DNA from: Patescibacteria group bacterium
GTDB taxonomy: Bacteria > Patescibacteriota > Minisyncoccia > Phycocordibacterales > JAKAEA01
Assembly: GCA_040387855.1 (NCBI GenBank)
Contig: JAZKCY010000001.1
Coordinates: 846,922 to 910,921 of the forward strand
Length of the DNA stretch: 64,000 nt
Reading direction: 5' to 3'
The notes under the pieces are model-generated. The model did no database searches. It was given only the letters and a program-made list of their open reading frames with translations, and had not been told where the DNA came from. Below are positions 22,150 to 63,995 of the stretch, piece by piece (within the stretch, counting starts at the first letter, position 1; each line of letters starts with the position of its first letter). A program made the position numbers and the translations under genes.

Positions 22150-22180
<31 letters not shown>

Positions 22181-23325: not shown

Positions 23326-23573
<248 letters not shown>

Positions 23574-24995: not shown

Positions 24996-25037
<42 letters not shown>

Positions 25038-26036: not shown

Positions 26037-26062
26037 GAAGCCGCACTGTTTGGTGCGGCTTC
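26037..26062. terminator. Perfect 10-bp hairpin at the left edge of the GC-rich island (possible terminator or boundary element)
   Basis: gaagccgcac tgtttg gtgcggcttc. On the plus strand it is followed by a T-rich tract. Confidence 0.3.
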
Positions 26063-26152
26063 GTGCTCATTTTATTATTCGGTAGTAGCACACCGGGCGA
26101 ATTTCTTCGCGAAAGATCAAATGTGACTCAGTTCAGGACCTCAGACGTCAGG

Positions 26153-27001
26153 TCAGCCCTTCGCCGACGGCCCAGCATGTCCGTCTTCGGGGGCGACCAC
26201 ACGGGTCGGGTCCGGGGACTCCCAGGCGTAGCTGTCGATGGGTTTCCCGTCGGTACCCGTGGGAACCCAGTCGGCCGGAGCGCGGAGGCCGTAGAGGCTG
26301 CTACCCAAGGCCTCGAGGTCGATCGGCTCATCACTTTCGTGCGTGACGTCGAGCAGCAACCCCTGACCGTCACCGACAGCGTCGGGATAGGGATCGTGGG
26401 TAATGCTCACGACCCTCAGGCTGGTCACTCGCATCCCGGTAACCGCGGAGTTGTCCGGGACCGGAATGGATACCCCAGCGAACCGCTGATCATCCTCGTC
26501 GCGCTTCGAGAAGGCCATGACGATGAGAAACCGCATGAGCGATCCTCCCGTCAAAATCTCCTCTTGGTACAGCGCATACGCCACGGCCATCAGGATGCCG
26601 ATGATGCTCGGCAGTAGCGACACCAATGCTTCCCCGAGGACGATTGCGTAGATCCCGCTGACGAGTGCAAACGCCGAGCCAAGAAGCGCAAACCACCAGC
26701 AGATGAAGACTCCGACCTCGTCGTCCGACGTGCCGTTCTCGATCTCCGTAGCCACCGCCTTGATGATCTTCATCCAGACGATGATCACGAGGAACAGGAA
26801 CAGCGAATCGAACCACCGCGAGAGGTTGATCACCGTCCCGGCCGAAACCAGGGAGAGATCAAACGACATGCGGTAGGCCTCGATCGGCACCTCCGACTGG
26901 TTGGCCCAGTACACCAGGCTCACGCTAAGCGCGAACAGCGCCCAGACAGAAGCCGGAAGCGACCAGAGGAACGACACGGTAGAAAAAAAGATTCGAGACA
27001 T
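26153..27001 (-). CDS. Island ORF 1: polytopic membrane protein with a C-terminal acidic soluble domain (282 aa), function unknown
   Basis: High-GC ORF. About 5 TM helices in the first roughly 170 aa, then a D/E/P-rich soluble tail. RBS is tcAAGGAcggtttacaATG. The overlapping ORFs in other frames look like R/G/P-rich high-GC artefacts. Confidence 0.55.
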   Translation of the reverse strand: MSRIFFSTVSFLWSLPASVWALFALSVSLVYWANQSEVPIEAYRMSFDLSLVSAGTVINLSRWFDSLFLFLVIIVWMKIIKAVATEIENGTSDDEVGVFICWWFALLGSAFALVSGIYAIVLGEALVSLLPSIIGILMAVAYALYQEEILTGGSLMRFLIVMAFSKRDEDDQRFAGVSIPVPDNSAVTGMRVTSLRVVSITHDPYPDAVGDGQGLLLDVTHESDEPIDLEALGSSLYGLRAPADWVPTGTDGKPIDSYAWESPDPTRVVAPEDGHAGPSAKG

Positions 27002-27065
27002 TGTAAACCGTCCTTGATTGAGAACTAATGGATACTAAACCGAACGATTCGGCCTATATCCACGC

Positions 27066-27102
27066 TGTGTATATATTACCATATTTTATACATAAAGTCA
27101 AA
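27066..27102 (-). promoter_or_regulatory. Near-consensus sigma70 promoter for island ORF 1 (TTGACT-17-TGgTAATAT)
   Basis: Minus strand: tTTGACTttatgtataaaatatggTAATATatac. -35 lies at revcomp 27096-27101 and -10 at revcomp 27073-27078. Confidence 0.5.
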
Positions 27103-27103
27103 T

Positions 27104-27136
27104 AAAAAAGACCCCACACAACTATGTCGTGCGGGG
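27104..27136 (-). terminator. Rho-independent terminator of island ORF 2
   Basis: Minus strand: ccccgcacgacatagttgtgtgggg followed by TCTTTTTT. One G.T wobble in an 8-bp stem. Confidence 0.5.
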
Positions 27137-27216
27137 CCCTTGCATTTCGAGAACGGTGGAAAATGCTCACCGATAAAGATCAAATCTCATGACGCTACGC
27201 TACTATGCCCTGTCAA

Positions 27217-27759
27217 TCAGGCCGGCCGCATGATCACGTGCATCGCGCGGCGCTTGAGGGCCTTCAAGAAAATCTTGGGCTTCATGACCGCAGCCCGGAG
27301 GCGCGGCATCTTGCAGTCCACGTAGTGGATGACCAAGCAGCAGACGCCGAGAATGATCAGTCCAATCCCCCCGAAGAACGCCATGCTCACGCCTTGGCCG
27401 GCGAGCGTCCCGAACCCCATGAAGAGGAAGGAGACCATGCCGATCCACACGTATACCTGGTCGTAGCTGAACGACTTGCCCCAGAGCATGCGGCGCCCGT
27501 AGGTGTCGTGGCCGGCGGCGTCCTTCTCCTTGCGGAGGGTCATGCCGTAGCAGAACGACCAGTGGCCGATGAACGCCATCAACCCGAGGGTAATGAGGTC
27601 CACGAACCGGGGGCCGTTGACCGCCTCCATGAAGAAGCGGCTCGGCCGGGCGTTGTTCCAGAGCCACGGCGTGCCGAAGGTCAGGATCACGAGCCCCCAG
27701 ATGCTGGCGATCGCGAGCGTGACCAGGAGAGCGAACACGTAGGACTTGATGCGGAACAT
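27217..27759 (-). CDS. Island ORF 2: four-TM membrane protein with a basic C-terminal tail (~181 aa), function unknown
   Basis: The ORF track gives 27217..27840, but the likely start is the internal ATG (revcomp 27757-27759), which is preceded by tcAAGGAcggttcccATG. The sequence is MFRIKSYVFALLVTLAIASIWGLVIL.... Confidence 0.55.
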   Translation of the reverse strand: MFRIKSYVFALLVTLAIASIWGLVILTFGTPWLWNNARPSRFFMEAVNGPRFVDLITLGLMAFIGHWSFCYGMTLRKEKDAAGHDTYGRRMLWGKSFSYDQVYVWIGMVSFLFMGFGTLAGQGVSMAFFGGIGLIILGVCCLVIHYVDCKMPRLRAAVMKPKIFLKALKRRAMHVIMRPA

Positions 27760-27829
27760 GGGAACCGTCCTTGAAATGAGAGCTGACGTGCATACGACCG
27801 GACTGTCCGGCAATAACACATCCTGGGTA

Positions 27830-27858
27830 TATGATATCATATTTATACAAATTTGTCA
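27830..27858 (-). promoter_or_regulatory. Near-consensus sigma70 promoter for island ORF 2 (TTGACA-17-TGaTATCAT), divergent partner of the ORF 3 promoter
   Basis: Minus strand: TTGACAaatttgtataaatatgaTATCAT. -35 lies at revcomp 27853-27858. Confidence 0.5.
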
Positions 27859-27867
27859 AATATATTA

Positions 27868-27895
27868 TTTGACTTTATTTATTTATATGATATAA
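27868..27895 (+). promoter_or_regulatory. Near-consensus sigma70 promoter for island ORF 3 (TTGACT-16-TGaTATAAT)
   Basis: TTGACTttatttatttatatgaTATAAT. -35 is at 27868-27873 and -10 at 27890-27895, with an extended TG. Confidence 0.55.
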
Positions 27896-27994
27896 TACAT
27901 ACTAAGGAAAAGCGTTCGGTTACTCTCGGTCTCCGGGAGCGACGCTAATCCAAGACTCCTGTTACCTGCGAATTTCGCAGGAGGAGAAGGTATC

Positions 27995-28471
27995 GTGATT
28001 GGAATGATCCAGAGCACGCTTCGTCAGTTCGCCCTCACCAGCAACGATCCCAGCCTCGACCTCACCCAGAGGCGGCAGGGGTGGCAGCCCAGCTGGATGT
28101 GGGTGCGGATGGGTGACCTTGTGCAGGCGGTGAACAGCGCCCACCCCGAGCTCTCTCCCTTCGACCAGAAGATCTGGACCGGCAAGGAGCTCGGAAACAC
28201 GTTTGCCGAGATCAACCGGATCCAGACCTTCTGGTTTGTCATGGAGGGCTACAAGGAGCCCCAGTACGAGAACATCGTCCGCGGCATCCCGCCCAGGAAC
28301 ATCCCGTTCGACCAGCTGGAGCTCTTCGTCCCCGCAGTCTGGGCCGAGCAGGTCTTCGCGATCACCCGCAAGGGCATCACGGCGATCCTGTGGATGAGCA
28401 ACAAGCCCTACGGTCAACGCGGAACGAACATCGTCGCCATCGACGAGATTCTCAAGGCCGCCGCGGCCTAA
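27995..28471 (+). CDS. Island ORF 3: hypothetical cytoplasmic protein (158 aa)
   Basis: GTG start 9 nt downstream of GGAGG. The SD is partly sequestered in the perfect hairpin cctgcgaa-t-ttcgcagg (27965-27981). No recognisable domain. Confidence 0.55.
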   Translation: MIGMIQSTLRQFALTSNDPSLDLTQRRQGWQPSWMWVRMGDLVQAVNSAHPELSPFDQKIWTGKELGNTFAEINRIQTFWFVMEGYKEPQYENIVRGIPPRNIPFDQLELFVPAVWAEQVFAITRKGITAILWMSNKPYGQRGTNIVAIDEILKAAAA

Positions 28472-28510
28472 AATAATGTACCCCGACAATTCACCGGGAA
28501 TGTGAATTAA

Positions 28511-28562
28511 GAACCCCGAGCCCCGGAGCCTGCGAAAGCACGCCCCGGGGTTCACTATTTTA
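28511..28562 (+). terminator. Rho-independent terminator of island ORF 3
   Basis: gaaccccg...ccggggttc forms an 8-bp GC-rich stem with an internal loop, followed by ACTATTTTAT. Confidence 0.5.
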
Positions 28563-28576
28563 TACAAACCCATAGT

Positions 28577-28604
28577 TTGACTTTCTGTATTTTTATGATA
28601 TAAT
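28577..28604 (+). promoter_or_regulatory. Near-consensus sigma70 promoter for island ORF 4 (TTGACT-16-TGaTATAAT)
   Basis: TTGACTttctgtatttttatgaTATAAT, the same architecture as the ORF 3 promoter. The 5' UTR contains the 12-bp perfect palindrome CCACACGTGTGG (28641-28652). Confidence 0.55.
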
Positions 28605-28691
28605 TAGCACAGACATACAAAGGGTTCGAGTAGTGGTGATCCACACGTGTGGTCCCTATTTTAATCCAATGTATACCTGGGAGATCCTGAT

Positions 28692-29156
28692 ATGTTGAAC
28701 ACTTTAATGAGCCGTGCGGCAGCGTACATCAACACGATGCCCGAAGGCTCCAGCACGCGCAACCGTGCGTCGGCAGCGTTCGCACTGGCACAAGCGATCG
28801 CACTCTCCATGGCTCAACGCGAGCCGCGGGAGTCGAAGTTCGTGATGTTCACGAACCAGCAGCTCCAGCGCGCGTTCGATGTCCTCCGGCACTACAACGT
28901 GGAGACAGTCACCGACCACGAGTGCCTGGAGCCGGCGATCAAGATGTTGGCCTGGGCATTCATCCAGACCGCCAACGGCTTCGGTGAGAACATCGAGCGC
29001 GACATCAAGCTCGTGTTCATCGAAGGTGATCACTACAACGTCATCCACGAGGACACGCTCCACCGCGCGTTGACCTGCATCCGTGAAGGAGCAAAGTCGA
29101 TCGTAGCCGGAATCCCGGAGCTGGCCGGTGTGATGCACCCCGAATCCACAGTCTGA
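28692..29156 (+). CDS. Island ORF 4: hypothetical cytoplasmic protein (154 aa)
   Basis: ATG preceded by GGGAG at -8. High-GC codon usage. No recognisable domain. Confidence 0.55.
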   Translation: MLNTLMSRAAAYINTMPEGSSTRNRASAAFALAQAIALSMAQREPRESKFVMFTNQQLQRAFDVLRHYNVETVTDHECLEPAIKMLAWAFIQTANGFGENIERDIKLVFIEGDHYNVIHEDTLHRALTCIREGAKSIVAGIPELAGVMHPESTV

Positions 29157-29200
29157 AAGTACATGCCCATCTTCGCAGGCATATAGAAAAGCGAACAACC

Positions 29201-29250
29201 GAGCCCCGACACCAGAGACTTACATCTGGTGCCGGGGCTCTTACGTTTTA
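29201..29250 (+). terminator. Rho-independent terminator of island ORF 4
   Basis: gagccccgacaccag agacttacat ctggtgccggggctc forms a 15-bp stem with one mismatch, followed by TTACGTTTTAG. Confidence 0.55.
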
Positions 29251-29261
29251 GTAATCTACAA

Positions 29262-29307
29262 AATTTTATATAAAAAATGGTCAGGTCTCCCGGAGGAAAC
29301 CTGACCA
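29262..29307 (-). terminator. Rho-independent terminator of island ORF 5
   Basis: Minus strand: tggtcaggt ttcctccgggag acctgacca (perfect 9-bp stem) followed by TTTTTTATATAAAATTTT. It starts 5 nt after the stop codon. Confidence 0.6.
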
Positions 29308-29311
29308 TGTC

Positions 29312-29683
29312 TCACATGGCCTTCGGCCAGTTGGGACAACTCAACTTGTACATTCTCTTCTCCACTGCATCAATGTGATGCCAGTAGCACTTGAGGCATA
29401 CTGGACATTGCTTGATGATACAGCCAGAATCGGCTGTCCTATCCCCGCTTCGAGGAGGACAACACGTGGAGTAGCCTACTACATCTTCAAATCGTCCGAG
29501 ACTGTCTGTCAGCACGAAGCTACATCCCCGCTTAGCGCAGCGGTACTCACCGTGCGCAATCCGAGGACTCCACTGCACGCCCCACGAATCGTCGGTTGGC
29601 TTTGGAGCAGCACCCGAGCTCGTCATCTCAATCACCACCGGTACTAGCACTTGAAGTACCGCGGTTCCCACAATCTTTTCCAT
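29312..29683 (-). CDS. Island ORF 5: small Cys-rich protein (~124 aa; 10 Cys, zinc-ribbon/knottin-like pattern) with a hydrophobic N-terminus
   Basis: The ORF track gives 29312..29737, but the likely start is the ATG at revcomp 29681-29683 (MEKIVGTAVLQVLVPVVIE...). The AGGA of the SD sits in the loop of a perfect 8-bp hairpin, catacgaaAGGAttcgtatg. Cys clusters are CAKRGC, CCPP, CIIKQCPVCLKC and SCPNW. Confidence 0.5.
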   Translation of the reverse strand: MEKIVGTAVLQVLVPVVIEMTSSGAAPKPTDDSWGVQWSPRIAHGEYRCAKRGCSFVLTDSLGRFEDVVGYSTCCPPRSGDRTADSGCIIKQCPVCLKCYWHHIDAVEKRMYKLSCPNWPKAM

Positions 29684-29762
29684 ACGAATCCTTTCGTATG
29701 AATGCCTGAGGTTTAAGAACAGAAGTCCCGCCGACACATGCCGGCGGGATTGCCCGTTGGAT

Positions 29763-29790
29763 ATAATAGAATAAATACTAGTTTTGTCAA
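29763..29790 (-). promoter_or_regulatory. Near-consensus sigma70 promoter for island ORF 5 (TTGACA-16-TATTAT)
   Basis: Minus strand: TTGACAaaactagtatttattcTATTAT. It is followed in the 5' UTR by the GC hairpin cccgccg...cggcggg (29722-29743). Confidence 0.5.
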
Positions 29791-29808
29791 CGGATATCTC
29801 GTCGGGAT

Positions 29809-30438
29809 TTATCGGGCAGCAACGTTAATCTTATCCAGAATAATTTCGTGTTCATAATCAAGAATATCCCGAACAAGCTTATCGTAGACGCCTAATCGAT
29901 ACTGAAAATCTGCAGTTTCAAAAGAGGCATAACGAATTTCTTTTCCAAGCTCAGATTCTAGAGTTCGAACTACATTTTCAAGTGTTCCCTTTCGTAAATT
30001 ATCTCCAACAACGAGGAGATCAACACGCGAATCCCAATTTTGTATAAAAAATCCAGAAATAATAACAAGCTTAAGTTTACCAACACGAGCAAGCTTTCGT
30101 AATAACTCCTGGTTGCGCTGTTCACTAACATGCACCAAAAGATTCTTTAGTGGGTCTAAATATTCAAATGTGTAATCAAGCGTCCAGCCCATTACTCGAT
30201 GGCGTTCTATTTTTTTATTTTTTCCTCGGCCAACTTCTACATCTCTAAAAAAGCTTTTCTTTTTAAGCATGCCCATTTTTTCAAGCAATGAGAGTTCTTG
30301 TCGTGCCGCTGTTGGAGTTACTTTTGATCGTTCAATAACATGATCTATGTCATAGCTTTCTTCATTGTTAAACAAGAAAAGTCGCATGATTTTTACCTTT
30401 GCTGCTGAACCAAATAGTTTTTCGAGAATGTCGAGCAT
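29809..30438 (-). CDS. Putative winged-helix + minimal nucleotidyltransferase-domain protein (209 aa)
   Basis: N-terminal wHTH-like region. The central ...ISGFFIQNWDSRVDLLVVGD... resembles the GS-x(n)-DxD pol-beta-type NTase motif. Low-GC host-like composition. Confidence 0.4.
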   Translation of the reverse strand: MLDILEKLFGSAAKVKIMRLFLFNNEESYDIDHVIERSKVTPTAARQELSLLEKMGMLKKKSFFRDVEVGRGKNKKIERHRVMGWTLDYTFEYLDPLKNLLVHVSEQRNQELLRKLARVGKLKLVIISGFFIQNWDSRVDLLVVGDNLRKGTLENVVRTLESELGKEIRYASFETADFQYRLGVYDKLVRDILDYEHEIILDKINVAAR

Positions 30439-53905: not shown

Positions 53906-54496
53906 CTAGAGCTGTGTTTCGCGAATAGAACTGTTGATTGCGTTGAGAGCTATTTTTTTCTTATCGATCATCTCTGTTAATAAATCTTTACTCCAAACGC
54001 TAGAAAGAAACTGCACAAGTTCTGCCTGTGAACTCATATATCCAAGTTCTTTTAAGATTCTGAGTACTAAAATTCTTTCAAAAGCCTTTATTTCTTCTTC
54101 AAACAATTCTTGCTGTTCCAAAAATTCAAAGCTTTGTTGCAACATAACGAATAACTCTTCATCCTTTTGCTCTCCTGGAATAAATCTTTTTAAAAGTGAA
54201 AAAACATGAGCAAACACAAGAATTATATTTTTCTTATCAAGATATGTATGATAATAATTTTCTTCAGCCTTAGCATTTGTTATACGCCAAATATCTTTAC
54301 CACGTACAATAGAAACTCGCGCTAATGATAAGTCTTGTAATGCTGCTTTTAATTTAGATTTAGAAAGTCGCACACCTTGAGCCGTAGCACGGACCATTCC
54401 CAAATCTTTGGTAAATACCCAATATACGCGGTTGGCTTCACCAGAGGGCTGGCTATCTAAAATAAATCCAAGTGTAGTATAAACATGATGAGCCAT
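53906..54496 (-). CDS. recO: DNA repair protein RecO (short form)
   Basis: The N-terminal OB-fold region ...YTTLGFILDSQPSGEANRVYWVFTKDLGMVRATAQGVR... matches the RecO N-terminus. Its start overlaps the ileS stop by 1 nt. Confidence 0.6.
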   Translation of the reverse strand: MAHHVYTTLGFILDSQPSGEANRVYWVFTKDLGMVRATAQGVRLSKSKLKAALQDLSLARVSIVRGKDIWRITNAKAEENYYHTYLDKKNIILVFAHVFSLLKRFIPGEQKDEELFVMLQQSFEFLEQQELFEEEIKAFERILVLRILKELGYMSSQAELVQFLSSVWSKDLLTEMIDKKKIALNAINSSIRETQL

Positions 54497-57400
54497 TATT
54501 TCTGAAGCGAAAGTTTGAATGTAAGATCCTCGATCTTTAATTCTTCACCTTCTACTTCAGAAAATACGACGTCGCGTACCTGAGCAACTTTCATTATGTC
54601 TGATTTAAATTTTTCTATTATAGATTTCCCCGTGTCTGATGTATCTACTGTAAGGGTCACAAAGTCGTGTGGATTTAATCCTGCGTTCTTTCGAGCTTCT
54701 TGTAGTGCTCGCATAAAATCTCGAGCTAAACCTTCTTCTTTAAGTTCTGGAGTAATTGTTGTATCAAGATTTAATTCATCCCCAAATATCACTTCTTTCA
54801 CATTTAATTCATCAGCAATTATTTGTTTGAATTGTTGATTATCTACTAATGATTTTTCTGCAATTGTAAGTTTTGAGAGAGGCTGACGCACTTTAACTCC
54901 TGCTTTTGATCTTACCTCTAGAGCTGTAGAAACAAGATTTCTCACTTCTTGCATCTGCACAATAACGTTTTGATTAATTACGTTACTTCCCGGCCATGAT
55001 TCTAAATGCACACTTTCTTTACCATCTGTTCCCTTCACTTTCTGATAGATGTCCTCTGCTAGGAACGGCATAAAAGGCGCTACAAGCTTCGACAGCTCAC
55101 GCAAAACATACTGAGTGGTATAGAGAGCATTTTCTTTATCTTGTGCGTCGTCGCCCTTAAATCGGTCACGAGAACGGCGGAGATACCATGTTGAAAGATC
55201 ATCGACAAATTGCATAAATGGTCGAGCTGCACGATCGAGCTTATAGCTTTCAAGATTTGTCGTCACTTCCTGAGACACTTCATTAAGTCGAGCTAGAATC
55301 CATTGATCTAATACATTAGTTGTAGAATTTCCTGTACCTGTGTAGTCACGTTCGTAGGTAGCAAAAAATGAGTACACATTTTGAAGGCGCATCAATACTT
55401 TCTTTGAAATTTCATCAACACCCTTTTCTGTAAAAGCTAAATCTTCTGCACGTACTGCAGGTGATGCAAGTAAATAGTAACGCATTGCGTCAGCCCCGTA
55501 CTTATCGAAAATATAACTAACTTCAGGGTAGTTCTTGAGTCTCTTCGACATTTTCTGGCCATCCTCTGCTAGCACAATTCCGTTTACAATTACATTCTTA
55601 TATGGAGCTTTTCCAAACAAAGCTACTGAGAGCACCAATAATGAATAAAACCATCCTCGAGTCTGATCTTGGCCTTCAGCAATAAAATCAGCCGGGAATC
55701 GTTTACCAGAATCTATAAGCTCTTTATTTTCAAATGGATAGTGAAGCTGACCATACGGCATTGATCCTGATTCATACCACGTATCAAATACTTCAGGCAC
55801 TCGCTTAAATGTTCCTCCACAGTCGCAGGCAAATGCTACTTCGTCGATAAATGGTCGATGGAGATCTATTTGATACGCTCTATTATGTGGAAGCTGCGCA
55901 AAATCTAAGGGTGATTCTTGACCTGGTGTAAGAAAGTTGCGATCCATTCCCCATAGTTCAATAATCTTTTCATCATGTCCTCCTTCAGCCACCGCAAAGA
56001 GCATAGTTGCAGGACCATCATGTGTTACAAGTAAAATGTTTTTACCTTCATATTTTGCATCAATGTCATAGATAAAATCACCAATGCGTGCTCGTACATC
56101 AGTGAGATTTTCACCTCCAGGTAGTGACTTTGTAAGTCGTTCTTTTACAGAGCCAAAGTACCGATGATATTCTTCAACAGTTTTACCGTTGTAATCTCCA
56201 AAATTAAATTCTTGGATTCGATCATCGGAAAGTCGTTCTCCTTTAAATGCAATTGTTTCAGTAACGACATCGGCTGTCTCTTGAGTACGTACGCATGGTG
56301 ATGCGATTATGATATCTATATTTTTATCTTTAAGCGCTTCTGCTGAAAGTTGTGCTTGTTCTCTACCATGATCAGTAAGATGGTGTGGAAATTTTGGATC
56401 GCAGCTCAAAATATTGGCTACATTGTGATCAGCCTCTCCATGTCTCATCACAAAATAGGTGTTGCGCTTTGTTTTCTTTTTAAGATCAGATAGTGATCCC
56501 ATTACTTCAGTTTTTCCACATTCTTTACAGATCCATACCGGAAGTGGCGCGCCCCAATAGCGAGATCGTGAAATTGCCCAATCACGAGCATTTTCAAGCC
56601 ATTTTCCAAAGCGGTTTTCTCCAATTTCTGGTGGCACCCAGGTTACCTTTTTATTTTCTTCTACGAGTTTATCTTTAAATTCAGTGACTTTTACAAACCA
56701 TGAGCTAGAAGCATAGTTTAGAAGTGGTGTATCACATCGCCAACAATGTGGGTATGAGTGAATAAGCTTTTCTTTTGCAAAAAGTGTTCCCTTTCCAGCT
56801 AAATATTTTATAACTTCGATATCCGCCTTTTGATGAGCTATAGGATCCTCTTTTGTTGCTTTTGCTTTAACTTTTGTGCCAGCAAAATCTGTTACTTCTT
56901 TTTTAAAAGTCCCGTCAGTGTTTACATGCTGAATGAAAGGTAAATTTTCTTTAACAGACAAAAGATAGTCATCTTCTCCAAACGCTGGAGCAATATGCAC
57001 AACTCCTGTTCCATCTGTTGTAGTTACAAATTCCCCTCCTACTATTTTCCATGCATTTTCTTTGTTCTTAAGATCTGCGTTTACGTAATAATCAAATACA
57101 GGCTTATATGTTTTTCCTAGCAAATCAGCGCCTAAAAATTCAGAAACTATTTCTGGATTCTTACTCTTGAATTTATCTTTAGATTTTTCTAATAAATCTT
57201 TTGCAAATATATAGTGAGTTTTACTATTTGATTCAGGATCAGTATCTTTTACTTTTACATAGGTTACATCTGGCTTTACTGCAAGTGCTGCGTTTCCTGG
57301 AAGTGTCCATGGAGTTGTTGTCCAAGCCACCACAAATGTACCTGGTTCATCTACAAGTTCAAACTTTGCATACACAGAAATATCTGTGATGTCTTTATAT

Positions 57401-58014
57401 CCCTGTGTTACTTCAAAGTTTGAAAGTGTTGTCTCACAATGAGGACACAGCGACATTGATTTAAATCCTTGATAGATCAGGTTTTTATCATGCAACGTTT
57501 TGAAAGACCACCAGATAGATTCAGAATACTTCCAATCCATAGTCTTATAGGCATTCTCCATGTCGATGAAGCGGCCTGTTCGAGGAATTATTGCTTTCCA
57601 TTCATGATCATACCGGAGCACACTTTCACGAGCTTTATCATTAAACTTTTCTATTCCCAATTCTTCAATATCTTTTTTACTCTTAAGACCTAATTCTTTT
57701 TCAACTAAGTTTTCGATTGGAAGTCCATGCGTATCCCATCCCCATCGTCGAGGTACATGAAAGCCATTCATAGTTTTATACCGAGGAATCACATCCTTCA
57801 TTGTTCCAGGTAAAATGTGACCATAGTGAGGAGCACCTGTAGCAAAAGGAGGACCATCAAAAAACATATAATTACCTTGTGGAGAATCTTTCTCTAATGT
57901 TTTTTCAAAGATGTTGTTTGCTTGCCAAAACGCAAGAAGCTCTTCTTCTCGTTGTACTAAAGCACTTTTTTCCGGCATTACTGCTGGTTTTTGAGGTTGT
58001 TCTTTATCAGCCAT
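54496..58014 (-). CDS. ileS: Isoleucyl-tRNA synthetase, eukaryote/archaeal type, carrying an inserted histidine-phosphatase (PGAM-like) domain
   Basis: DGPPFATGAPHYGHIL (the type-2 IleRS HIGH motif), WRCDTP, YWGAPLPVWICKECG, EVFDTWYESGSMPY and KMSKRLKNYP are all present. Between the Zn/CP segment and the DTWY motif, residues about 515-715 contain RHGE...HDG, the histidine phosphatase signature. Confidence 0.9.
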   Translation of the reverse strand: MADKEQPQKPAVMPEKSALVQREEELLAFWQANNIFEKTLEKDSPQGNYMFFDGPPFATGAPHYGHILPGTMKDVIPRYKTMNGFHVPRRWGWDTHGLPIENLVEKELGLKSKKDIEELGIEKFNDKARESVLRYDHEWKAIIPRTGRFIDMENAYKTMDWKYSESIWWSFKTLHDKNLIYQGFKSMSLCPHCETTLSNFEVTQGYKDITDISVYAKFELVDEPGTFVVAWTTTPWTLPGNAALAVKPDVTYVKVKDTDPESNSKTHYIFAKDLLEKSKDKFKSKNPEIVSEFLGADLLGKTYKPVFDYYVNADLKNKENAWKIVGGEFVTTTDGTGVVHIAPAFGEDDYLLSVKENLPFIQHVNTDGTFKKEVTDFAGTKVKAKATKEDPIAHQKADIEVIKYLAGKGTLFAKEKLIHSYPHCWRCDTPLLNYASSSWFVKVTEFKDKLVEENKKVTWVPPEIGENRFGKWLENARDWAISRSRYWGAPLPVWICKECGKTEVMGSLSDLKKKTKRNTYFVMRHGEADHNVANILSCDPKFPHHLTDHGREQAQLSAEALKDKNIDIIIASPCVRTQETADVVTETIAFKGERLSDDRIQEFNFGDYNGKTVEEYHRYFGSVKERLTKSLPGGENLTDVRARIGDFIYDIDAKYEGKNILLVTHDGPATMLFAVAEGGHDEKIIELWGMDRNFLTPGQESPLDFAQLPHNRAYQIDLHRPFIDEVAFACDCGGTFKRVPEVFDTWYESGSMPYGQLHYPFENKELIDSGKRFPADFIAEGQDQTRGWFYSLLVLSVALFGKAPYKNVIVNGIVLAEDGQKMSKRLKNYPEVSYIFDKYGADAMRYYLLASPAVRAEDLAFTEKGVDEISKKVLMRLQNVYSFFATYERDYTGTGNSTTNVLDQWILARLNEVSQEVTTNLESYKLDRAARPFMQFVDDLSTWYLRRSRDRFKGDDAQDKENALYTTQYVLRELSKLVAPFMPFLAEDIYQKVKGTDGKESVHLESWPGSNVINQNVIVQMQEVRNLVSTALEVRSKAGVKVRQPLSKLTIAEKSLVDNQQFKQIIADELNVKEVIFGDELNLDTTITPELKEEGLARDFMRALQEARKNAGLNPHDFVTLTVDTSDTGKSIIEKFKSDIMKVAQVRDVVFSEVEGEELKIEDLTFKLSLQK

Positions 58015-58053: not shown

Positions 58054-59796
58054 TTACATTCGTTCTGGAGCTTCAATTCCTAAGAGATACATTCCGTTTT
58101 TTAGTACCCATGATACTGCTTCTGTAAGGGCAACTTTATAAGGAGATTCTGAGTCGCGCTTTCCAACGATCTTATTATTTGCATAGTAAGCATTAAATGC
58201 TCCTGCTAACTCTGTAATGTAGGTCACAATATGATGCGGCGCAAATTCATTTGCAGATCGCTCAACTACTTCTGGGAACTTATAGAGCATTCGTTCTAAG
58301 GTTCCAAGTTCATCTGGAATAGTACTTAGTTTAATCTTAGGTTCTATTCCCTCGTCTTTAGCTTTTGCTAATACTGATTTTGTTCGTACATAGGTGTACT
58401 GAATATAGGGACCTGAGTCACCCTCAAATGAAAGTGATTTTTCTGGATCAAAGATAATATCTTTTCCAACTGTCTGGCGTAAAACTGTGTATTTAATTGC
58501 AGCGATAGCTACTTTCTCTGCGATCTCTCTTTTCTCAATCTCGTGATAGTTTTTGTCTGCCATTTTTTCATAGACCATCTTTTCGATATCTTCAATAAGT
58601 GATTCACCAGTAATAACATTACCCTTTCGTGAGCTCATTTTACCTGAAGCAAATCGCATCATACCGTGGCTAAAATGTTTGGTTCGTCGCGCAATTTCTG
58701 GATATATAAATTCCAGAGTTTTAAGAATTACTTTATAGTAATCATTTTGCTCACTGGCAGTAATGACAATAGAAAGATCATAGTCATGAAGCTCAAATTT
58801 ACGCTTAGTAAGTCCCAATTCTTTAGCTTCATATGTTGGTAGCTCTTGAGAGTTGATAAACACACGGTTATGTAATCCATGCTGTTCACCAGGAAATATT
58901 ACGGCCCCTTCGCTCAACACAAACACACCTCGATCTAGAAATGCTTGAACAATAGTTTTCCCTTCTTCAGCAACTTCGCTTTCATAGAAATGATAATCAA
59001 AACGACTGCCAAGCTTTCGGTAAATTTCTTCAAAATGCTTGATACTTATCGCCCGTCCCCAATCATAGATCTCTTGTACTTCAGGATCACTTTTCTCAAA
59101 AATCTTTTTATTGAGGTCTTTTATCTCTTTTTGAGCATCTGCAGATTCTTCATAGGCATTTGAACCATACACATATGCTTTACCCAAAAAAGCCACTTGG
59201 GCACGTTCGTTAGTTTGAGGAAATTCATCACGAAGTCTCATGATTCCCCAAATACACTTTGCAACATGAAGTCCCACATCTCCACCGTATGTAGCTCGTG
59301 TTAGTTTTGCATCTTGAAAGTCAAATGCACGAGAAAGGGCCTCTCCAATAGTATTCGACATTAGGTGCCCAATATGAAATTGCTTAAATGGATTTGGATC
59401 TGTATATTCGATAATTACTTTCTTATTCCACAACTTTTTAGTTTTTCCATACCATACTGTCTGATCTAATATCTCTGTAAGAGATTCTGTAAAAAACTTC
59501 TTAGTGAGTCTGAAGTTTATAAAACCAGGATGCACAGCTTGTACTGATTCTATATAGGGATGCTTTGTTTCTTTCAACAGATCATGAACTCGAGCAGTGA
59601 TTTTTTCAGCCAAATCAAATGGGCTCTTTGAGCTTGCTCCCAAAGATTTGAAAAGCACCATAGCAATGTTGGTAGAATAATCGCCATTCTTTTGATCAGC
59701 AGGATGATCAAGCACAATAGGAGCCATATCTTTGGGAACTCCCAGAGATTCACAGGCTCTTTGTATTAGGTCTTGTAGCGTACTCTGAATAGTCAT
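58054..59796 (-). CDS. argS: Arginyl-tRNA synthetase
   Basis: N-terminal Arg-tRNA-binding domain (...GDYSTNIAMVL...), HIGH-like FHIGHLMSNTIGEAL and a C-terminal DALR anticodon-binding domain ending ...GIEAPERM. Confidence 0.9.
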   Translation of the reverse strand: MTIQSTLQDLIQRACESLGVPKDMAPIVLDHPADQKNGDYSTNIAMVLFKSLGASSKSPFDLAEKITARVHDLLKETKHPYIESVQAVHPGFINFRLTKKFFTESLTEILDQTVWYGKTKKLWNKKVIIEYTDPNPFKQFHIGHLMSNTIGEALSRAFDFQDAKLTRATYGGDVGLHVAKCIWGIMRLRDEFPQTNERAQVAFLGKAYVYGSNAYEESADAQKEIKDLNKKIFEKSDPEVQEIYDWGRAISIKHFEEIYRKLGSRFDYHFYESEVAEEGKTIVQAFLDRGVFVLSEGAVIFPGEQHGLHNRVFINSQELPTYEAKELGLTKRKFELHDYDLSIVITASEQNDYYKVILKTLEFIYPEIARRTKHFSHGMMRFASGKMSSRKGNVITGESLIEDIEKMVYEKMADKNYHEIEKREIAEKVAIAAIKYTVLRQTVGKDIIFDPEKSLSFEGDSGPYIQYTYVRTKSVLAKAKDEGIEPKIKLSTIPDELGTLERMLYKFPEVVERSANEFAPHHIVTYITELAGAFNAYYANNKIVGKRDSESPYKVALTEAVSWVLKNGMYLLGIEAPERM

Positions 59797-59810: not shown

Positions 59811-60266
59811 CTATATTTTCCCTGTACTTCCAAAGCCTCCTTGTCCACGATCTGATTCTGAAAGTTCTTCTACTTCTTCTATCACGCATTCTTCTCGTCG
59901 CTGAATAATCATTTGGGCAACCTTATGACCGCGCTCAAATATTATTGGTTGATCACCAAGATTGATCATTCCAACCATAATTTCTCCACGATATCCTGCA
60001 TCAATAACTCCTCCAAGTGTTTTTAACCCTGATCGATGTGAAAGCCCGCTTTTATCCCAAATGAGTCCAACATATCCATACGGAATTTCCATAGCGACAC
60101 CTGTTGGAATTTGTGCTCGTTCCATTGGTTTAATTTCAATAGGAACAGATGTATATAAATCATAAGCAGCGTCCCCTACCATTGCTGTAGTAGGCATCGT
60201 TGCATGAGGATGCATTTTCTTTACTTTTAAGACTAATGGTACAAATGACATATTATTCTTCAACAA
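59811..60266 (-). CDS. dut: dUTP diphosphatase
   Basis: Conserved dUTPase motifs ...DAGYRGEIMVGMINLG... and the C-terminal RGQGGFGSTG. Confidence 0.9.
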   Translation of the reverse strand: MLKNNMSFVPLVLKVKKMHPHATMPTTAMVGDAAYDLYTSVPIEIKPMERAQIPTGVAMEIPYGYVGLIWDKSGLSHRSGLKTLGGVIDAGYRGEIMVGMINLGDQPIIFERGHKVAQMIIQRREECVIEEVEELSESDRGQGGFGSTGKI

Positions 60267-60669
60267 AAAATTCTTTAAAAAGCATATCTGCTTCTTCTAC
60301 ATTCTTATATTTTTTAAATGTTAGATACGTATTTCCACTAATCATAGCTGATGGTCGTTTACCTTCTGTTTCGCGATATAAAGCTAAAATCGGCTTCTTA
60401 TGAGCTTCTGCAAAACCAATTTCATAACCCACTCCAAGACTGGCTGTAGTTACTTCTGCAACGAGTACATCAGATTCTTTAATCCAATTTAGATCACGTT
60501 CACAAATTTGTTCATCACTAAGATCCTGTTCTCCCATTACATCAAGATCTACTTTTCCAATATGTTCCGTAAGCACAGTGCCATAAGAACCCAGCTTTTT
60601 TATGAGCTCCAAATAGAGTTCTTTATCATCACGTCCGCCACGTATTGATCCTGCAAAATATATTTTCAT
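60253..60669 (-). CDS. 2'-deoxynucleoside 5'-phosphate N-hydrolase (DNPH1/Rcl-like; nucleoside 2-deoxyribosyltransferase superfamily)
   Basis: MKIYFAGSIRGGRDD...GTVLTEH...EQDLNWIKESDVLVAEVTTASLGVGYEIGFA...KPILALY closely parallels the DNPH1 consensus (YFCGSIRGGR...VLTEHV...QDLNWL...VVVAEVTQPSLGVGYELG). Confidence 0.7.
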   Translation of the reverse strand: MKIYFAGSIRGGRDDKELYLELIKKLGSYGTVLTEHIGKVDLDVMGEQDLSDEQICERDLNWIKESDVLVAEVTTASLGVGYEIGFAEAHKKPILALYRETEGKRPSAMISGNTYLTFKKYKNVEEADMLFKEFFVEE

Positions 60670-60887
60670 TACTCTTCTTTAAATACTTCAATACAAAGTA
60701 CATTAGGATCATTAACCATAATAAGGCGGCCGTCAGTAGTATTAAATTTCGTAAACTGGCCTTGCATAATGGTAGATGAAATCACACCTTTAATAGTCTT
60801 TTTTGTTCCACCCATAAAGGTAACAATCTGGGTTGTGGTTTTCCCCTGACTTCCTGCACTTGATTTGAGATCTACTTCTTTTGCCAT
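60669..60887 (-). CDS. Hypothetical small protein (72 aa)
   Basis: ORF track entry. Its stop abuts the start of the DNPH1-like gene. Confidence 0.35.
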   Translation of the reverse strand: MAKEVDLKSSAGSQGKTTTQIVTFMGGTKKTIKGVISSTIMQGQFTKFNTTDGRLIMVNDPNVLCIEVFKEE

Positions 60888-60904
60888 ACTAATATTTAAA
60901 TATA

Positions 60905-61606
60905 TTATTTCTTAATGATTTTTTTAACTACTTTGTATACTTCATCATTTACCTGTTCAGGCAACATACATACCATACCGTCGCAGCATTCAATACGAGT
61001 CCAGTTTTTATTACTTTCAGCCAATAAAAGCGCACTAGCCCGTGAATTTTTTAGATGAATAAGATTGTCTTCAGCAACATCTTTATTACCTCCATCTAAA
61101 TACTTCTTTTTTCGCAGACTCACTTTTTTCTGTAGCCACTCTTTACTCACTTCATAGGGAACATCGAGATAAATAACTTTATCTGGCTTTGGAATACCAA
61201 ATACTTTATATTCCATAGTATCGAGCCATTTTAAAAATTCTTGCCGCTCTTTTAGATTTTCAACTTTACCAGCTTGGTGAATTTGGTTGGCACTCACATA
61301 GCGATCAGCAATTACTACATATCCTTCATCGAGCCACTTTTTAATATCCTTGCTTGATTCAAGTCGATCAGCGGCATAGAGCACTGAGGCAATACGAGGA
61401 TCTACCTCGATAAAGTCTCCATACTTTCCAGAAAGATATTCTCCAATTAATTTTCCAAAAAAGTTGTTGTAGTAACGAGGAAAATCTATAGTCTTCACTT
61501 TTACTTTCTCTTTTAAGAGTCGTTTTTTTAGTAGCCCTACCTGTGTAGCCTTTCCTGATCCATCAATACCATCTATAACAATAAATTTTCCTTTGGTTGT
61601 TGGCAT
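60905..61606 (-). CDS. tmk: Thymidylate kinase
   Basis: P-loop FIVIDGIDGSGKATQ and DRY-like ...IADRY... motifs. The length is 233 aa. Confidence 0.9.
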   Translation of the reverse strand: MPTTKGKFIVIDGIDGSGKATQVGLLKKRLLKEKVKVKTIDFPRYYNNFFGKLIGEYLSGKYGDFIEVDPRIASVLYAADRLESSKDIKKWLDEGYVVIADRYVSANQIHQAGKVENLKERQEFLKWLDTMEYKVFGIPKPDKVIYLDVPYEVSKEWLQKKVSLRKKKYLDGGNKDVAEDNLIHLKNSRASALLLAESNKNWTRIECCDGMVCMLPEQVNDEVYKVVKKIIKK

Positions 61607-61610
61607 ATGA

Positions 61611-62819
61611 TTATTTCTTTTTCTTTCTTAGGGTCTTATCTATTTTCTCAGCAATTTGAATCATATGCTTTTCAGTGCGTCCTCGAGTAGTTTCTGCAGC
61701 AGTTCCCAATCGAACACCCGATGGATCCATAGCACTTCGTGTTTCTCCTGGAATAGTATTTTTATTTACAATGATTCCTGCTTTTTCTAAACGATCACTT
61801 GCATCTTTACCTCCCACTCCCTTTCCACCAAGCCATGTATCAACAAGCACCATATGACTATCTGTTCCATCAGATACAATTCTCCATCCTCGCTTTCGCA
61901 ATTCATCTGCAAGAACCTGTGCATTTTTCACTACCTGCTTTGCATATTTTTTAAATGCTGGAGTATCAGCTTCTTTAAGTGCAACAGCTACTGCTGCAAT
62001 TTGATTTACATGAGGACCACCCTGCATACCTGGGAATACTGATTTATCAATAAGTTCTGAAATATTTTTTTGCTCACCTTTTGCATTAGCAATAGTTTTA
62101 TCAAGTCGTGAGAAAATCATTGCGCTTCTAGGGCCACGCAATGTTTTGTGTACAGTTGTAGTGACAACATCTGCATATTCAAATGGTGATGGATACGCTT
62201 CGCCAGCAACAAGCCCTGCAAAGTGAGACATATCTACCATAAGCATTGCACCTGCGGCATCAGCTATATCTCTAAACTTTTTGAAATCAATTTTTCGTGG
62301 ATACGCAGTAAAACCAGCAACAATAAGCACTGGTTTATTTTCTACTGCAATCTTTGTTATTTCTTCATAATCTAGCTGCTCAGTTTCTGCATGAACTCCG
62401 TATGGCACTTGAAGCCAAAATTTTCCAGTAATAGATACTTTATGTCCGTGAGTAAGGTGACCTCCATTATCGAGTGCCATGCCCATAATTTTTCCATCCT
62501 TGGGAACGATAGCAGAATACACAGCAACGTTTGCAGGAGAACCAGAAAGAGGCTGAACGTTTACATGCCACTGCGTAGGCTTTAACTTAAAAAGCTTGAG
62601 GGCTCGCTTTTGAGCAAGATCTTCAATTTTATCTACAAACTTTTGCCCACCATAATATCTCTTACCTGAGTATCCCTCTGCATATTTATTAGTAAGCTCA
62701 GAGCCAAGAGCTTTAAGCACATCAGCTGACACATAGTTTTCAGAGGCAATAAGATTGGTCACTTCTTTCTGACGCTTCTTTTCCCCTTCTATAAGCTTTT
62801 TTATTTCTGTATCTTTCAT
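61611..62819 (-). CDS. glyA: Serine hydroxymethyltransferase
   Basis: Conserved PLP-lysine block ...VVTTTVHKTLRGPRSAMIF... and SHMT-wide collinearity. Confidence 0.95.
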   Translation of the reverse strand: MKDTEIKKLIEGEKKRQKEVTNLIASENYVSADVLKALGSELTNKYAEGYSGKRYYGGQKFVDKIEDLAQKRALKLFKLKPTQWHVNVQPLSGSPANVAVYSAIVPKDGKIMGMALDNGGHLTHGHKVSITGKFWLQVPYGVHAETEQLDYEEITKIAVENKPVLIVAGFTAYPRKIDFKKFRDIADAAGAMLMVDMSHFAGLVAGEAYPSPFEYADVVTTTVHKTLRGPRSAMIFSRLDKTIANAKGEQKNISELIDKSVFPGMQGGPHVNQIAAVAVALKEADTPAFKKYAKQVVKNAQVLADELRKRGWRIVSDGTDSHMVLVDTWLGGKGVGGKDASDRLEKAGIIVNKNTIPGETRSAMDPSGVRLGTAAETTRGRTEKHMIQIAEKIDKTLRKKKK

Positions 62820-62831
62820 TGGTATGTAGAA

Positions 62832-63995
62832 TTATTTCTTTTCTTTAATATCCTGCAATCCTCGGCGAACATCCCAATCATCTTTATCAAGATCAGGGTG
62901 AAGCACTAAATCAGGGAGAACCTTTTTCATACCGGTATACATTTTGTGCGCCACTTCTCGAAGGGTTGCATGCACAAGTTTTCCAGAACGAAGTTCCATT
63001 GTGTACACAGCTGCTGGAAGCCCATAGGTTACTTTACATGATACATTAAAGCCCATGGCTACATAATACTGAGTAATTTCTTTTGTGGCTTTGAGCGCTT
63101 TAATAGCTGCAACTTGTTCTTTGATAAGTTGCTTTGCTTGCTTCTGAAGATCTGCTGGGAGCTGTTCTATGTACCATTCATGAAAACCAAATTTTGTAGT
63201 GAGCAACGGCATGCGGCATACTCCGTTTCGATGTCGCTGAATGTCTCTGAATGATCCGAAATCCATTAAGAATTCAAAGGTAATTCTTCCAAGTTCAGTA
63301 AGGAAATGAGGGAGATTGGTTTTTACTGGGCGCTTCTTAATCAAATCTTTGTATGGCTTCAACATATCATTCTTAATAGTAGTGAATGTTGAAAATCCTT
63401 TTGTCTTAGGAGCTTCTGTATAATATGAATACTTCTCTACTGAAAGCTTTCGGTATGCTTCCTGTTCTGGATAGGTCTTATGCCCAAAGCTATGAGCATA
63501 TTTTTCTAAGAGCTTATCATTCATTTCTTTCGCAACCTTTTGAACTTCAGGCAATGGGAAATATTTCAAAAGTGAAAGCTTGTCATGAGCCTGGCGTAAA
63601 TTTGTGTGCCATGAAAGCTGTGTTGTCACTCCTGCTGGCAAAAATCCTCGTAGGATATCAAAGACACGAGCTTTGATCGCACGTGTATATACAGCTTCGT
63701 CTTCTGTTGCTTTTCTTGGATACTTACCTCGAAGGTGTTCTTCAAGTGCAGGCTGACTTCCCAAATAGAAGTCCATCCACTTTTGCATAATAGCCTTTGA
63801 AGCTTTTGTTTTTACAGGATCAATAATTTCCTGCTTTGACATATCAATGTAGCGAGAACTTGTTTCTTGTCCTGAGTAGAGCGGCCAGTCTTGGACGGCT
63901 TTTGCTACAAGCATTGATACTCCTTCGATAAACACAGTAGTAGATCCGCAATCTGCAATAGAAGCATGGCCATACCCTACATAGTAGCGTTCCAT
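62832..63995 (-). CDS. thyX: FAD-dependent thymidylate synthase ThyX (long form)
   Basis: ...GYGHASIADCGSTTVFIEGVSMLVAKAVQDW... resembles the ThyX RxxxHxS...F.IEG.SR block and an RHR motif (DIQRHRNG) is present. It sits beside dut, tmk and glyA. At 387 aa it is longer than canonical ThyX. Confidence 0.65.
   Translation of the reverse strand: MERYYVGYGHASIADCGSTTVFIEGVSMLVAKAVQDWPLYSGQETSSRYIDMSKQEIIDPVKTKASKAIMQKWMDFYLGSQPALEEHLRGKYPRKATEDEAVYTRAIKARVFDILRGFLPAGVTTQLSWHTNLRQAHDKLSLLKYFPLPEVQKVAKEMNDKLLEKYAHSFGHKTYPEQEAYRKLSVEKYSYYTEAPKTKGFSTFTTIKNDMLKPYKDLIKKRPVKTNLPHFLTELGRITFEFLMDFGSFRDIQRHRNGVCRMPLLTTKFGFHEWYIEQLPADLQKQAKQLIKEQVAAIKALKATKEITQYYVAMGFNVSCKVTYGLPAAVYTMELRSGKLVHATLREVAHKMYTGMKKVLPDLVLHPDLDKDDWDVRRGLQDIKEKK

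Follow-up and report, generated by a model that had tools for sequence, protein, structure and literature searches.

A predicted histidine phosphatase nested in the CP3 zinc knuckle of a patescibacterial isoleucyl-tRNA synthetase

A 64,000-nucleotide stretch of the genome of a Patescibacteria group bacterium (contig JAZKCY010000001.1 of assembly GCA_040387855.1, positions 846,922 to 910,921), hereafter the window, carries on its minus strand an ileS gene whose product, an isoleucyl-tRNA synthetase (IleRS), contains a complete and apparently active, predicted histidine phosphatase within its synthetase body (Table 1). A preliminary description, made from the letters of the window, had pointed to a collinear IleRS of 1172 amino acids (aa) with about 200 extra residues (55870-56475) between the zinc-binding CKECG segment and the DTWYESGS motif, and had assigned these residues to the histidine phosphatase superfamily. 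All the motifs it quoted are present, the open reading frame (ORF) reads through uninterrupted and matches the NCBIfam equivalog TIGR00392 (ileS; 907.1 bits against a cut-off of 621.4) in two stretches that flank the insert, and the domain lies inside the range given. The superfamily assignment was borne out by a Pfam scan, in which PF00300 (His_Phos_1) matches aa 521-683 with an E value of 2.3e-31 (109.4 bits against a gathering threshold of 21.7; profile positions 2-165 of 194).

The host protein is a type-2 IleRS. Pfam tRNA-synt_1 matches it in two stretches, the best being aa 26-516, and is followed by Anticodon_1 (aa 903-1048) and DUF5915 (aa 1082-1172). The HIGH motif has the form PHYGH (aa 62-66), the first zinc site, in the connective peptide (CP) core, is formed by C190/C193/C424/C427, and CP1 contains the editing motifs WTTTPWTLPGN (aa 231-241) and GTGVVHIAPAFGEDD (aa 335-349, with H340 and D349). 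The second Rossmann half carries DTWYESGS (aa 744-751), GQDQTRGWFY and KMSKR (aa 821-825). In a 77-sequence alignment HIGH, KMSKR, both zinc sites and the CP1 editing residues are all invariant. Searches with phmmer gave E values of ~1e-215 to 1e-220 for 1ile, 8c8u and the yeast and human cytoplasmic IleRS, and only ~1e-92 for the Staphylococcus aureus IleRS1; the Foldseek ranking agrees, so that the nearest group is that of Thermus thermophilus, eukaryotic cytoplasmic and IleRS2 enzymes, and the C-terminus is of the DUF5915 type. With 729 and 745 bits against a cut-off of 1900 the protein falls outside the MupA and MupB families (NF000257/NF000258), and with 355 bits against 1999 it falls outside ileS_w_GNAT (NF040702); no acetyltransferase Pfam match was found in it. 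Neither a second IleRS nor a second His_Phos was found within the 64-kb window.

CP domain names were assigned by homology to yeast and Candida IleRS (PMC7955072, PMC7191050). On this basis the insert sits in CP3, directly after the CP2-3 linker (ARDWAISRSRYWG, aa 476-488), an element that lines the reveromycin-A pocket, reveromycin A being placed in the tRNAIle binding site (PMC7955072). As in T. thermophilus IleRS, whose CP3 holds a zinc-binding motif (PMC7191050), the CP3 of the window protein is zinc-binding, and here the two halves of the knuckle stand on either side of the insert: the first is the WICKECG segment (C496/C499, the Cys residues being kept in 113/120 homologs), the second is C730/C732 (FACDCGG). 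A helix (aa 508-515 in the AlphaFold2 model) stands just before the insert, while beyond it H719, P721 and D724 are invariant and P709 is found in at least 90% of the aligned sequences. The halves of the CxxC...CxC knuckle bring the ends of the loop together, which makes this a natural site for a nested domain. The insert boundaries (~aa 516-708) were set by alignment with an insert-free close relative, P0238, and so fixed the insertion point that had been proposed. Solved type-2 IleRS (1ILE; Priestia megaterium IleRS2, 8C8U; yeast, 7D5C/8WND) are collinear with the window protein (30-36% identity, TM-scores of 0.84-0.92 relative to the target) and share its HIGH, KMSKS and editing motifs; they have nothing in the knuckle loop, whereas in the window protein ~193 residues replace a linker of ~13 residues. 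Alignments to 1ile, 8c8u and the yeast and human cytoplasmic IleRS consequently break at about residue 513-517. The profile thus supports a His_Phos fold and the solved type-2 enzymes lack the segment, so that neither of the two doubts attached to the preliminary description, a coincidental motif match or a segment general to type-2 IleRS, holds.

The catalytic residues of the domain are conserved almost without exception. R524, H525, G526, N531, R576, E602 and H665 are kept in 116-119 of the 119 insert-bearing homologs; among them are the two histidines that had been read off as catalytic, that of the RHG motif and that of the VTH motif (119/119 and 118/119, respectively). E602 aligns with the catalytic Glu region of PhoE and PspA. 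Position 666, next to the second catalytic His, varies among N, D, E and Q. AlphaFold2 modelled the full-length protein with a mean predicted local distance difference test score (pLDDT) of 91.1 and a predicted template modelling score (pTM) of 0.84, the blocks of the insert reaching ~90-96, and the insert alone with a pLDDT of 94.2 and a pTM of 0.91. In these models the insert is a discrete, confidently predicted domain. Foldseek searches with the insert model gave a probability of 1.00, TM-scores of 0.72-0.81 and 22-26% identity to the nearest solved structures, which are 9mmh (a histidine phosphatase of the riboflavin pathway), the Schizosaccharomyces pombe phosphoglycerate mutase (PGM), PspA, GpgP, PhoE and CobC. 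The nearest solved sequences by phmmer are the phosphoserine phosphatase PspA (4ij5, E 3e-12), PhoE (1h2e/1ebb) and CobC (6nru). The segment is predicted to be a complete, apparently active branch-1 histidine phosphatase of the PhoE/PspA/CobC type, and one polypeptide would accordingly hold three active sites, for aminoacylation, for editing and the predicted phosphatase site.

Table 1 Features of the ileS gene, its nested phosphatase domain and the neighbouring genes (positions in the window)
Feature	Position	Strand	Basis
Whole gene: type-2 IleRS with nested histidine-phosphatase domain, 1172 aa + stop	54496..58014	-	ORF
IleRS aa 1-488: first Rossmann half, CP core, CP1, CP2, CP2-3 linker	56551..58014	-	Sequence, homology
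CP3 first half, aa 489-515: C496-x2-C499 and GSLSDLKKK helix into the insert	56470..56550	-	Homologs, AlphaFold2
Nested histidine-phosphatase domain (His_Phos_1, branch 1), aa 516-708, 193 residues	55891..56469	-	PF00300, P0238 alignment
Codons R524-H525-G526 (RHG, within YFVMRHGEADHN); H525, predicted phospho-accepting nucleophile	56437..56445	-	119/119 homologs
Codon R576, second phosphate-binding Arg, SPxxRT motif	56287..56289	-	119/119 homologs
Codon E602, predicted general acid/base	56209..56211	-	119/119 homologs
Codon H665, second catalytic His, VTH motif (LLVTHDG)	56020..56022	-	118/119 homologs
CP3 second half, aa 709-740: PHNRAYQIDLHRPFID and C730-x-C732	55795..55890	-	Homologs, 77-sequence alignment
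IleRS aa 741-1172: second Rossmann half, anticodon-binding domain, C-terminal DUF5915-type domains	54496..55794	-	Pfam, sequence
RecO, downstream neighbour, start overlaps the ileS stop codon	53906..54496	-	RecO_N, RecO_C
Arginyl-tRNA synthetase (ArgRS), upstream neighbour, 39-bp gap to ileS	58054..59796	-	Pfam
dUTPase	59811-60266	-	Deoxynucleotide-salvage cluster
Nucleoside 2-deoxyribosyltransferase	60253-60669	-	Deoxynucleotide-salvage cluster
Thymidylate kinase (Tmk)	60905-61606	-	Deoxynucleotide-salvage cluster
SHMT	61611-62819	-	Deoxynucleotide-salvage cluster
ThyX	62832-63995	-	Deoxynucleotide-salvage cluster

With PhoE, PspA and CobC (together with GpgP, 4pz9, and 9mmh) the insert shares the fold, a similar size of ~190 aa and the catalytic set, i.e. 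RHG, Asn, the second Arg, Glu and the second His, with a lid after the Glu. It differs from them in that the usual QG..D.pLT loop is replaced by SS.P...HHLT and in that its lid is ~7 residues shorter; moreover, these relatives are free metabolic enzymes, whereas the insert family is nested in, or encoded beside, a tRNA synthetase. Its best NCBIfam match is PRK07238 (E 1.3e-23), at 84 bits against a cut-off of 326, and the equivalogs PspA (NF045917, 64.9 bits against 350) and CobC (TIGR03162, 71.0 against 162.9) are likewise far from reached. PRK07238 describes the Rv2228c-type RNase H/acid phosphatase, in which a CobC/PhoE-like phosphatase is also fused to a nucleic-acid enzyme, there by an end-to-end fusion to RNase H and here by a nested insertion in a synthetase. 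Since all NCBIfam equivalogs score far below their cut-offs and mutase residues are lacking (see below), the insert family, marked by an N-x-Y-[FY]-x-x-RHG start, the SS.P...HHLT loop and a slightly shortened lid, is assigned on these sequence features to a distinct subfamily of small phosphomonoesterases.

PF00300 and the same architecture were found in 119 of the 120 best full-length homologs (56-67% identical), and a protein identical to that of the window (P0121) is known from a contig of 981,549 bp in a Patescibacteria metagenome-assembled genome. A scan of the GTDB species-representative genomes with one narrow peptide pattern, N[TNK][YF]FVMRH, matched 480 stretches, 454 of which encode a relative of the insert, corresponding to at least 454 species genomes. 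The insert therefore recurs across the candidate phyla radiation (CPR)/Patescibacteria, where a survey had been suggested, and the architecture, which had been called unusual, is so relative to characterised IleRS and is common within this one radiation. Statements at the level of the locus refer to the best 80 GTDB loci. Almost all of these are labelled as Patescibacteria/Parcubacteria lineages, including Campbell-, Nomura-, Taylor-, Zambryski-, Wolfe-, Adler-, Lloyd-, Vogel- and Niyogibacteria, and many bear the generic label "uncultured Candidatus Saccharibacteria"; among the 80 is CP011215.1, a complete Campbellbacteria genome that carries the architecture. The N-part of IleRS, the insert and the C-part are collinear in 79/80 loci, and the ArgRS-IleRS-RecO synteny is found in 41/80. 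Mean identity across loci is 44% for the insert, 49% for the C-part and 54% for the N-part, and the insert has the GC content (0.39) and the third-position GC content (GC3, 0.23) of the rest of the gene. The insert appears to be an old, selected part of the gene; a recent horizontal acquisition was rejected because both GC and GC3 equal those of the host gene. An intein-like element was also rejected, since the fold is not that of Hint and the N-junction lacks both Cys and Ser; PHN, found at the C-junction, reads PKN in the insert-free P0238 and hence belongs to IleRS. Short matches on long contigs had raised the question of naturally split IleRS genes, an idea that was dismissed because the fragments look like artefacts. 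On a 57.7-kb contig (L001 4560-8752) the IleRS-phosphatase gene is split into four fragments, of which two lie in inverted orientation close to the end of the contig; this looks like an assembly foldback or frameshift artefact and would explain many "partial" database entries. Many truncated proteins begin at the Met of VMRHGE, which looks like an artefact of gene calling.

The same phosphatase family also exists as free proteins, encoded beside ileS in five of six inspected cases. An exhaustive HMMER search with the insert alone as query returned 13,507 relatives, 46 of them with E <1e-30. Among the best 150 representatives at 50% identity, 107 have synthetase flanks (106 IleRS, one valyl-tRNA synthetase, ValRS), the remaining 43 being insert-only fragments or free proteins of ~190 aa; no other host protein was found among these 150 nearest representatives where flanks are recognisable. 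The contigs of six free proteins were inspected, and in five of them the phosphatase gene adjoins ileS: P0305 (L083) lies 18 bp upstream of an insert-less ileS of 968 aa, P0318 (L084/L085) 10 bp upstream of one of 962 aa, P0311 (L086) 1 bp upstream of one of 984 aa, P0288 (L088) directly upstream of the ileS N-terminus and not adjoining argS, while P0268 (L089) lies against the 3' end of an ileS that runs convergently. For genomes of about a thousand genes, adjacency in 5/6 cases is far more than chance would give. The position that a free phosphatase gene occupies in relatives with an insert-less ileS, the argS-ileS interval, holds no such gene in the window. Two of the free-phosphatase lineages have NUDIX hydrolase genes close to the argS-[phosphatase]-ileS block (L083 6915-8004, L084 1309-1806), in L083 together with a 205-aa ORF without Pfam match, both located between argS and the phosphatase gene; the NUDIX hydrolase is a possible candidate for a functional partner.

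Insertion sites and copy numbers were surveyed in 172 proteins of at least 900 aa. Most of these (~158/172) carry one copy in the CP3 knuckle (site A), and four (P0344, P0397, P0398 and P0371) carry two tandem copies there. P0265 keeps a short, uninterrupted knuckle and bears two copies, the first just past the second Cys pair (site A') and the other following WFESGSMPYA (site B). The short knuckle is also intact in P0372 and in the P0340 cluster, which was seen on six contigs of up to 1.06 Mb; their copies stand at site B and at a site C between the KMSKS/stem-contact region and the anticodon-binding domain; the P0340-type gene stands in a different gene context, without the ArgRS/RecO synteny (L090). 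P0253 (L091 366-3947) is a ValRS by NCBIfam, with one copy after SPQWF and at least three in tandem after WGHRIPVWY, in a loop homologous to site A. The fourth P0253 copy is interrupted by an in-frame TAA, beyond which the reading frame resumes; this premature stop is more likely a sequencing error or the mark of a pseudogene, and an alternative genetic code was rejected because the codon is TAA and not TGA. No N-terminal fusion was found among the 172 long proteins: all fusions are internal, most of them in or next to CP3. The RHG motif, and with it the catalytic set, is retained in all complete copies at all sites. In a tree of the domain the B, C and ValRS copies fall outside a clade in which site-A and free copies are intermixed, and these placements, together with the separate gene context of the P0340-type gene, indicate that the phosphatase domain was probably captured several times. 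Some patescibacterial IleRSs hold further domains besides the phosphatase: P0179 has a RimL/RimJ-type GNAT (Acetyltransf_3, aa 285-415) inside the CP1 region, and in P0330 a segment resembling an IS200-like Y1 transposase is joined by a GNAT at the C-terminus (aa 340-461 and 935-1063). GNATs of the RimL/MccE type detoxify aminoacyl-adenylate mimics, and by analogy the GNAT domains of P0179 and P0330 may be defence-related.

P0238 (994 aa; L082 10001-12985) documents the opposite event. It is 71% identical to the window protein over the IleRS body, it has no insert and a normal 13-residue linker in its place, and a neighbour-joining tree places it within the clade of insert-bearing proteins. 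The gene order of its contig matches that of the window (SHMT, Tmk, dUTPase, ArgRS, IleRS, RecO, a DUF11-type protein, a class II aminoacyl-tRNA synthetase and an M16 peptidase), and no phosphatase gene was found within 10 kb of its ileS. P0238 most probably is the product of a clean excision of the insert. A 272-aa ORF (L082 13031-13849) sits between its ileS and recO; it was considered as a displaced phosphatase and rejected, being unrelated to the insert and without Pfam match. The P0238 genome has ThyA and DHFR where the window has ThyX.

Taken together, the same phosphatase family stays attached to IleRS, physically or genetically, in several ways, and this linkage suggests a so far unrecognised job tied to tRNA charging. 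We propose, with a probability of roughly 0.55, that the attachment is functional, i.e. that the phosphatase is coupled to the catalytic body of IleRS and ValRS. Where the free gene lies just upstream of ileS, losing one stop codon would be enough to fuse the two at the N-terminus, but only internal fusions are found; such repeated tethering, never end to end, argues that the job of the phosphatase depends on its closeness to the IleRS/ValRS catalytic core. The recurrence in ValRS, the closest paralog, and in a lineage without shared synteny supports a functional attachment as well. By the chemistry of the family, His525 would attack a phosphomonoester to give a phospho-histidine intermediate, Arg524, Arg576, His665 and Asn531 would hold the phosphoryl group, and Glu602 would protonate the leaving group and then activate water. 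The phosphate would be removed from a ligand of the IleRS/ValRS core, for which a nucleotide-type small molecule, the acceptor (3') end of the tRNA and the enzyme's own phosphorylated loop are candidates. The preliminary description had put forward editing or proofreading, or the turnover of Ap4A or alarmones, as roles that the domain might play. A narrower and unlikely version of this proposal, built on analogy, takes the domain for a repair or immunity module that would strip phosphate or pyrophosphate from A76 of tRNA(Ile)/tRNA(Val), or phosphate from a serine of the KMSKS loop, and thereby restore aminoacylation. Toxins of the toxSAS type install phosphate or pyrophosphate groups on the 3'-terminal A76 of tRNAs, and kinase toxins of the HipA/HipT type phosphorylate the KMSKS-loop serine of other class I synthetases. 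Several points weigh against a functional coupling. The insert keeps a lid segment of the kind found in small-molecule phosphatases (aa 602-634), and to our knowledge no branch-1 histidine phosphatase acts on RNA ends. The variable sites and copy numbers (from 1 to at least 4) speak against a mechanism in which geometry is critical. P0238 has lost the insert cleanly, with no free copy nearby, which implies that the function is dispensable in at least one lineage and that the IleRS core needs no insert. The sixth free homolog, P0270 (L087), is not by ileS and stands beside a ROK sugar kinase, a HAD hydrolase and GlmS, and the five cases of adjacency may share ancestry and so not be fully independent. 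The alternative-site and ValRS cases come from few sequences, the P0253 contigs have ~2x coverage and an in-frame TAA, and the trees are neighbour-joining trees without support values.

The main rival reading, and a serious one, is a phosphatase that is active but mechanistically foreign to tRNA charging, acting for instance on a nucleotide, a sugar phosphate or phosphoserine, which in very small genomes would first have been co-transcribed with ileS and then have lodged in permissive surface loops of a large protein that is expressed constitutively. The close N- and C-termini of the His_Phos fold would ease such lodging, the nearest characterised relatives (PspA, PhoE, CobC, GpgP, 9mmh) are small-molecule phosphatases with a lid like the one retained here, and the varying sites and copy numbers and the P0238 loss fit a loosely coupled passenger. 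The GNAT domains of P0179 and P0330 and the Y1 transposase-like segment of P0330 suggest that the synthetase is a permissive scaffold, P0270 has a sugar-metabolism context, and deoxynucleotide-salvage genes (ThyX, Tmk, dUTPase, nucleoside deoxyribosyltransferase) lie upstream in the window. We hold such hitch-hiking to be less probable than functional coupling, because the easy N-terminal fusion of a gene 1-18 bp upstream is absent among the 172 proteins, all fusions being internal, because captures recur in IleRS and its closest paralog, also without shared synteny, and because the 150 nearest representatives include no other kind of host protein. That the fold serves without catalysis, as a structural module or as a sensor of, e.g., a phosphorylated metabolite that regulates IleRS, would agree with the full-length pTM of 0.84, which suggests a defined docking of the insert on the IleRS body in the model, and with the fact that nested synthetase domains often are binding or regulatory modules. 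In pseudo-enzymes the nucleophile or the acid, at the least, is usually gone; here all catalytic residues, Glu602 included, are kept with hardly an exception across the 119 homologs and in each complete copy, so that an inactive or sensor module is disfavoured and seems improbable. The preliminary description had called the domain phosphoglycerate-mutase-like, of which the superfamily stands and the likeness to mutases does not. A true cofactor-dependent phosphoglycerate mutase (dPGM) supplying the glycolytic step would have in its favour the name of the Pfam family, the rank of the short, monomeric S. pombe PGM as second-best Foldseek match and the annotation of an IleRS-insert fragment (P0244/cluster) as COG0406/K15634 gpmB, probable phosphoglycerate mutase, by which automated metabolic reconstructions of CPR genomes may count the IleRS insert as a glycolytic mutase. 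None of the NCBIfam dPGM models comes near its cut-off (dPGM_arch 82.6 bits against 225, GpmB 41.4 against 261, PRK01295 37.8 against 316), the substrate-binding stretch reads EFNFGDYNGKTV, THDG replaces HGN, and position 666 is variable. The positions equivalent to the substrate-binding residues of Escherichia coli GpmA, which we take to be Arg90, Lys100, Arg116/117 and Asn186, are F603, V613, no RR pair and D666/G667, an assignment made by eye that weighs less than the profile scores. A mutase is, on these grounds, very improbable. An assembly chimera or a gene-calling artefact, of the kind that did produce some of the related "split" proteins on long contigs (L001), can be given next to no weight for a gene whose ORF is uninterrupted, in which the insert shares the composition of its flanks and whose architecture is present in hundreds of independent assemblies, the complete CP011215.1 among them.

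Full-text literature searches found no paper describing a phosphatase within or beside IleRS, and a 2026 preprint on the domain evolution of IleRS mentions neither a phosphatase nor Patescibacteria. Database names are generic ("class I tRNA ligase family protein", "hypothetical protein"), the fragments being called "histidine phosphatase family protein". An enzyme-bearing IleRS as such is already a known kind: NCBIfam ileS_w_GNAT (NF040702) is a precedent for an extra enzyme domain, the GNAT differing from the phosphatase in fold and chemistry. The CP1 editing domains of class Ia synthetases offer the closest likeness in mode, being whole domains in a loop of the catalytic body that add a hydrolytic site serving the synthetase. 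CP1 acts on aminoacyl esters, which it hydrolyses, and is present throughout IleRS, ValRS and LeuRS; the phosphatase insert, unlike CP1, is a predicted phosphomonoesterase, is lineage-restricted and variable in site and copy number, and can be a separate gene. Aminoacyl-tRNA synthetases have been studied as closely as almost any enzymes, and their extra domains, whether for editing, tRNA binding or eukaryotic signalling, have repeatedly revealed new biology, and in hundreds of species of Patescibacteria/Parcubacteria an intact phosphatase active site is found in or next to IleRS, other lineages having come to similar arrangements by different routes, ValRS included. Should a ligand of the synthetase be the substrate, tRNA charging would gain a new kind of quality-control or repair step; should the phosphatase be a passenger only, it would still show clearly how, in nature, domains come to be nested repeatedly in an essential enzyme of minimal genomes, and the gpmB label would still be a practical warning, since it could bias the metabolic reconstruction of CPR genomes. 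With the repair or immunity module, if it exists, an aminoacyl-tRNA synthetase would for the first time have a phosphatase activity built in, and a branch-1 histidine phosphatase would for the first time act on a tRNA end or a synthetase.

Elsewhere in the window, a deoxynucleotide-salvage cluster (59811-63995, minus strand) lies directly upstream of argS-ileS, a context that could fit a nucleotide-phosphatase role of the insert. A 23S rRNA gene (22033-25564, minus strand) contains a group I intron (22332-22549) and is accompanied by a 5S rRNA gene (21628-21735, minus strand); no 16S gene adjoins them, and no tRNA gene was found within the 64-kb window. With this intron-bearing 23S rRNA gene and a GC content of 37%, the organism looks like a member of the CPR. 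Directly upstream of the 23S rRNA gene there is a block of ~4 kb (26000-29950) with a GC content of 0.51-0.61 against ~0.37 for the genome, with AT-rich flanks and five to six minus-strand ORFs, one of which (26153-27001) encodes a membrane-like protein of 282 aa. Pfam, Rfam and tandem-repeat searches of this block, and blastn against phage and plasmid collections, returned no match. The block has the look of a high-GC island gained by horizontal transfer, though a mis-join is possible.

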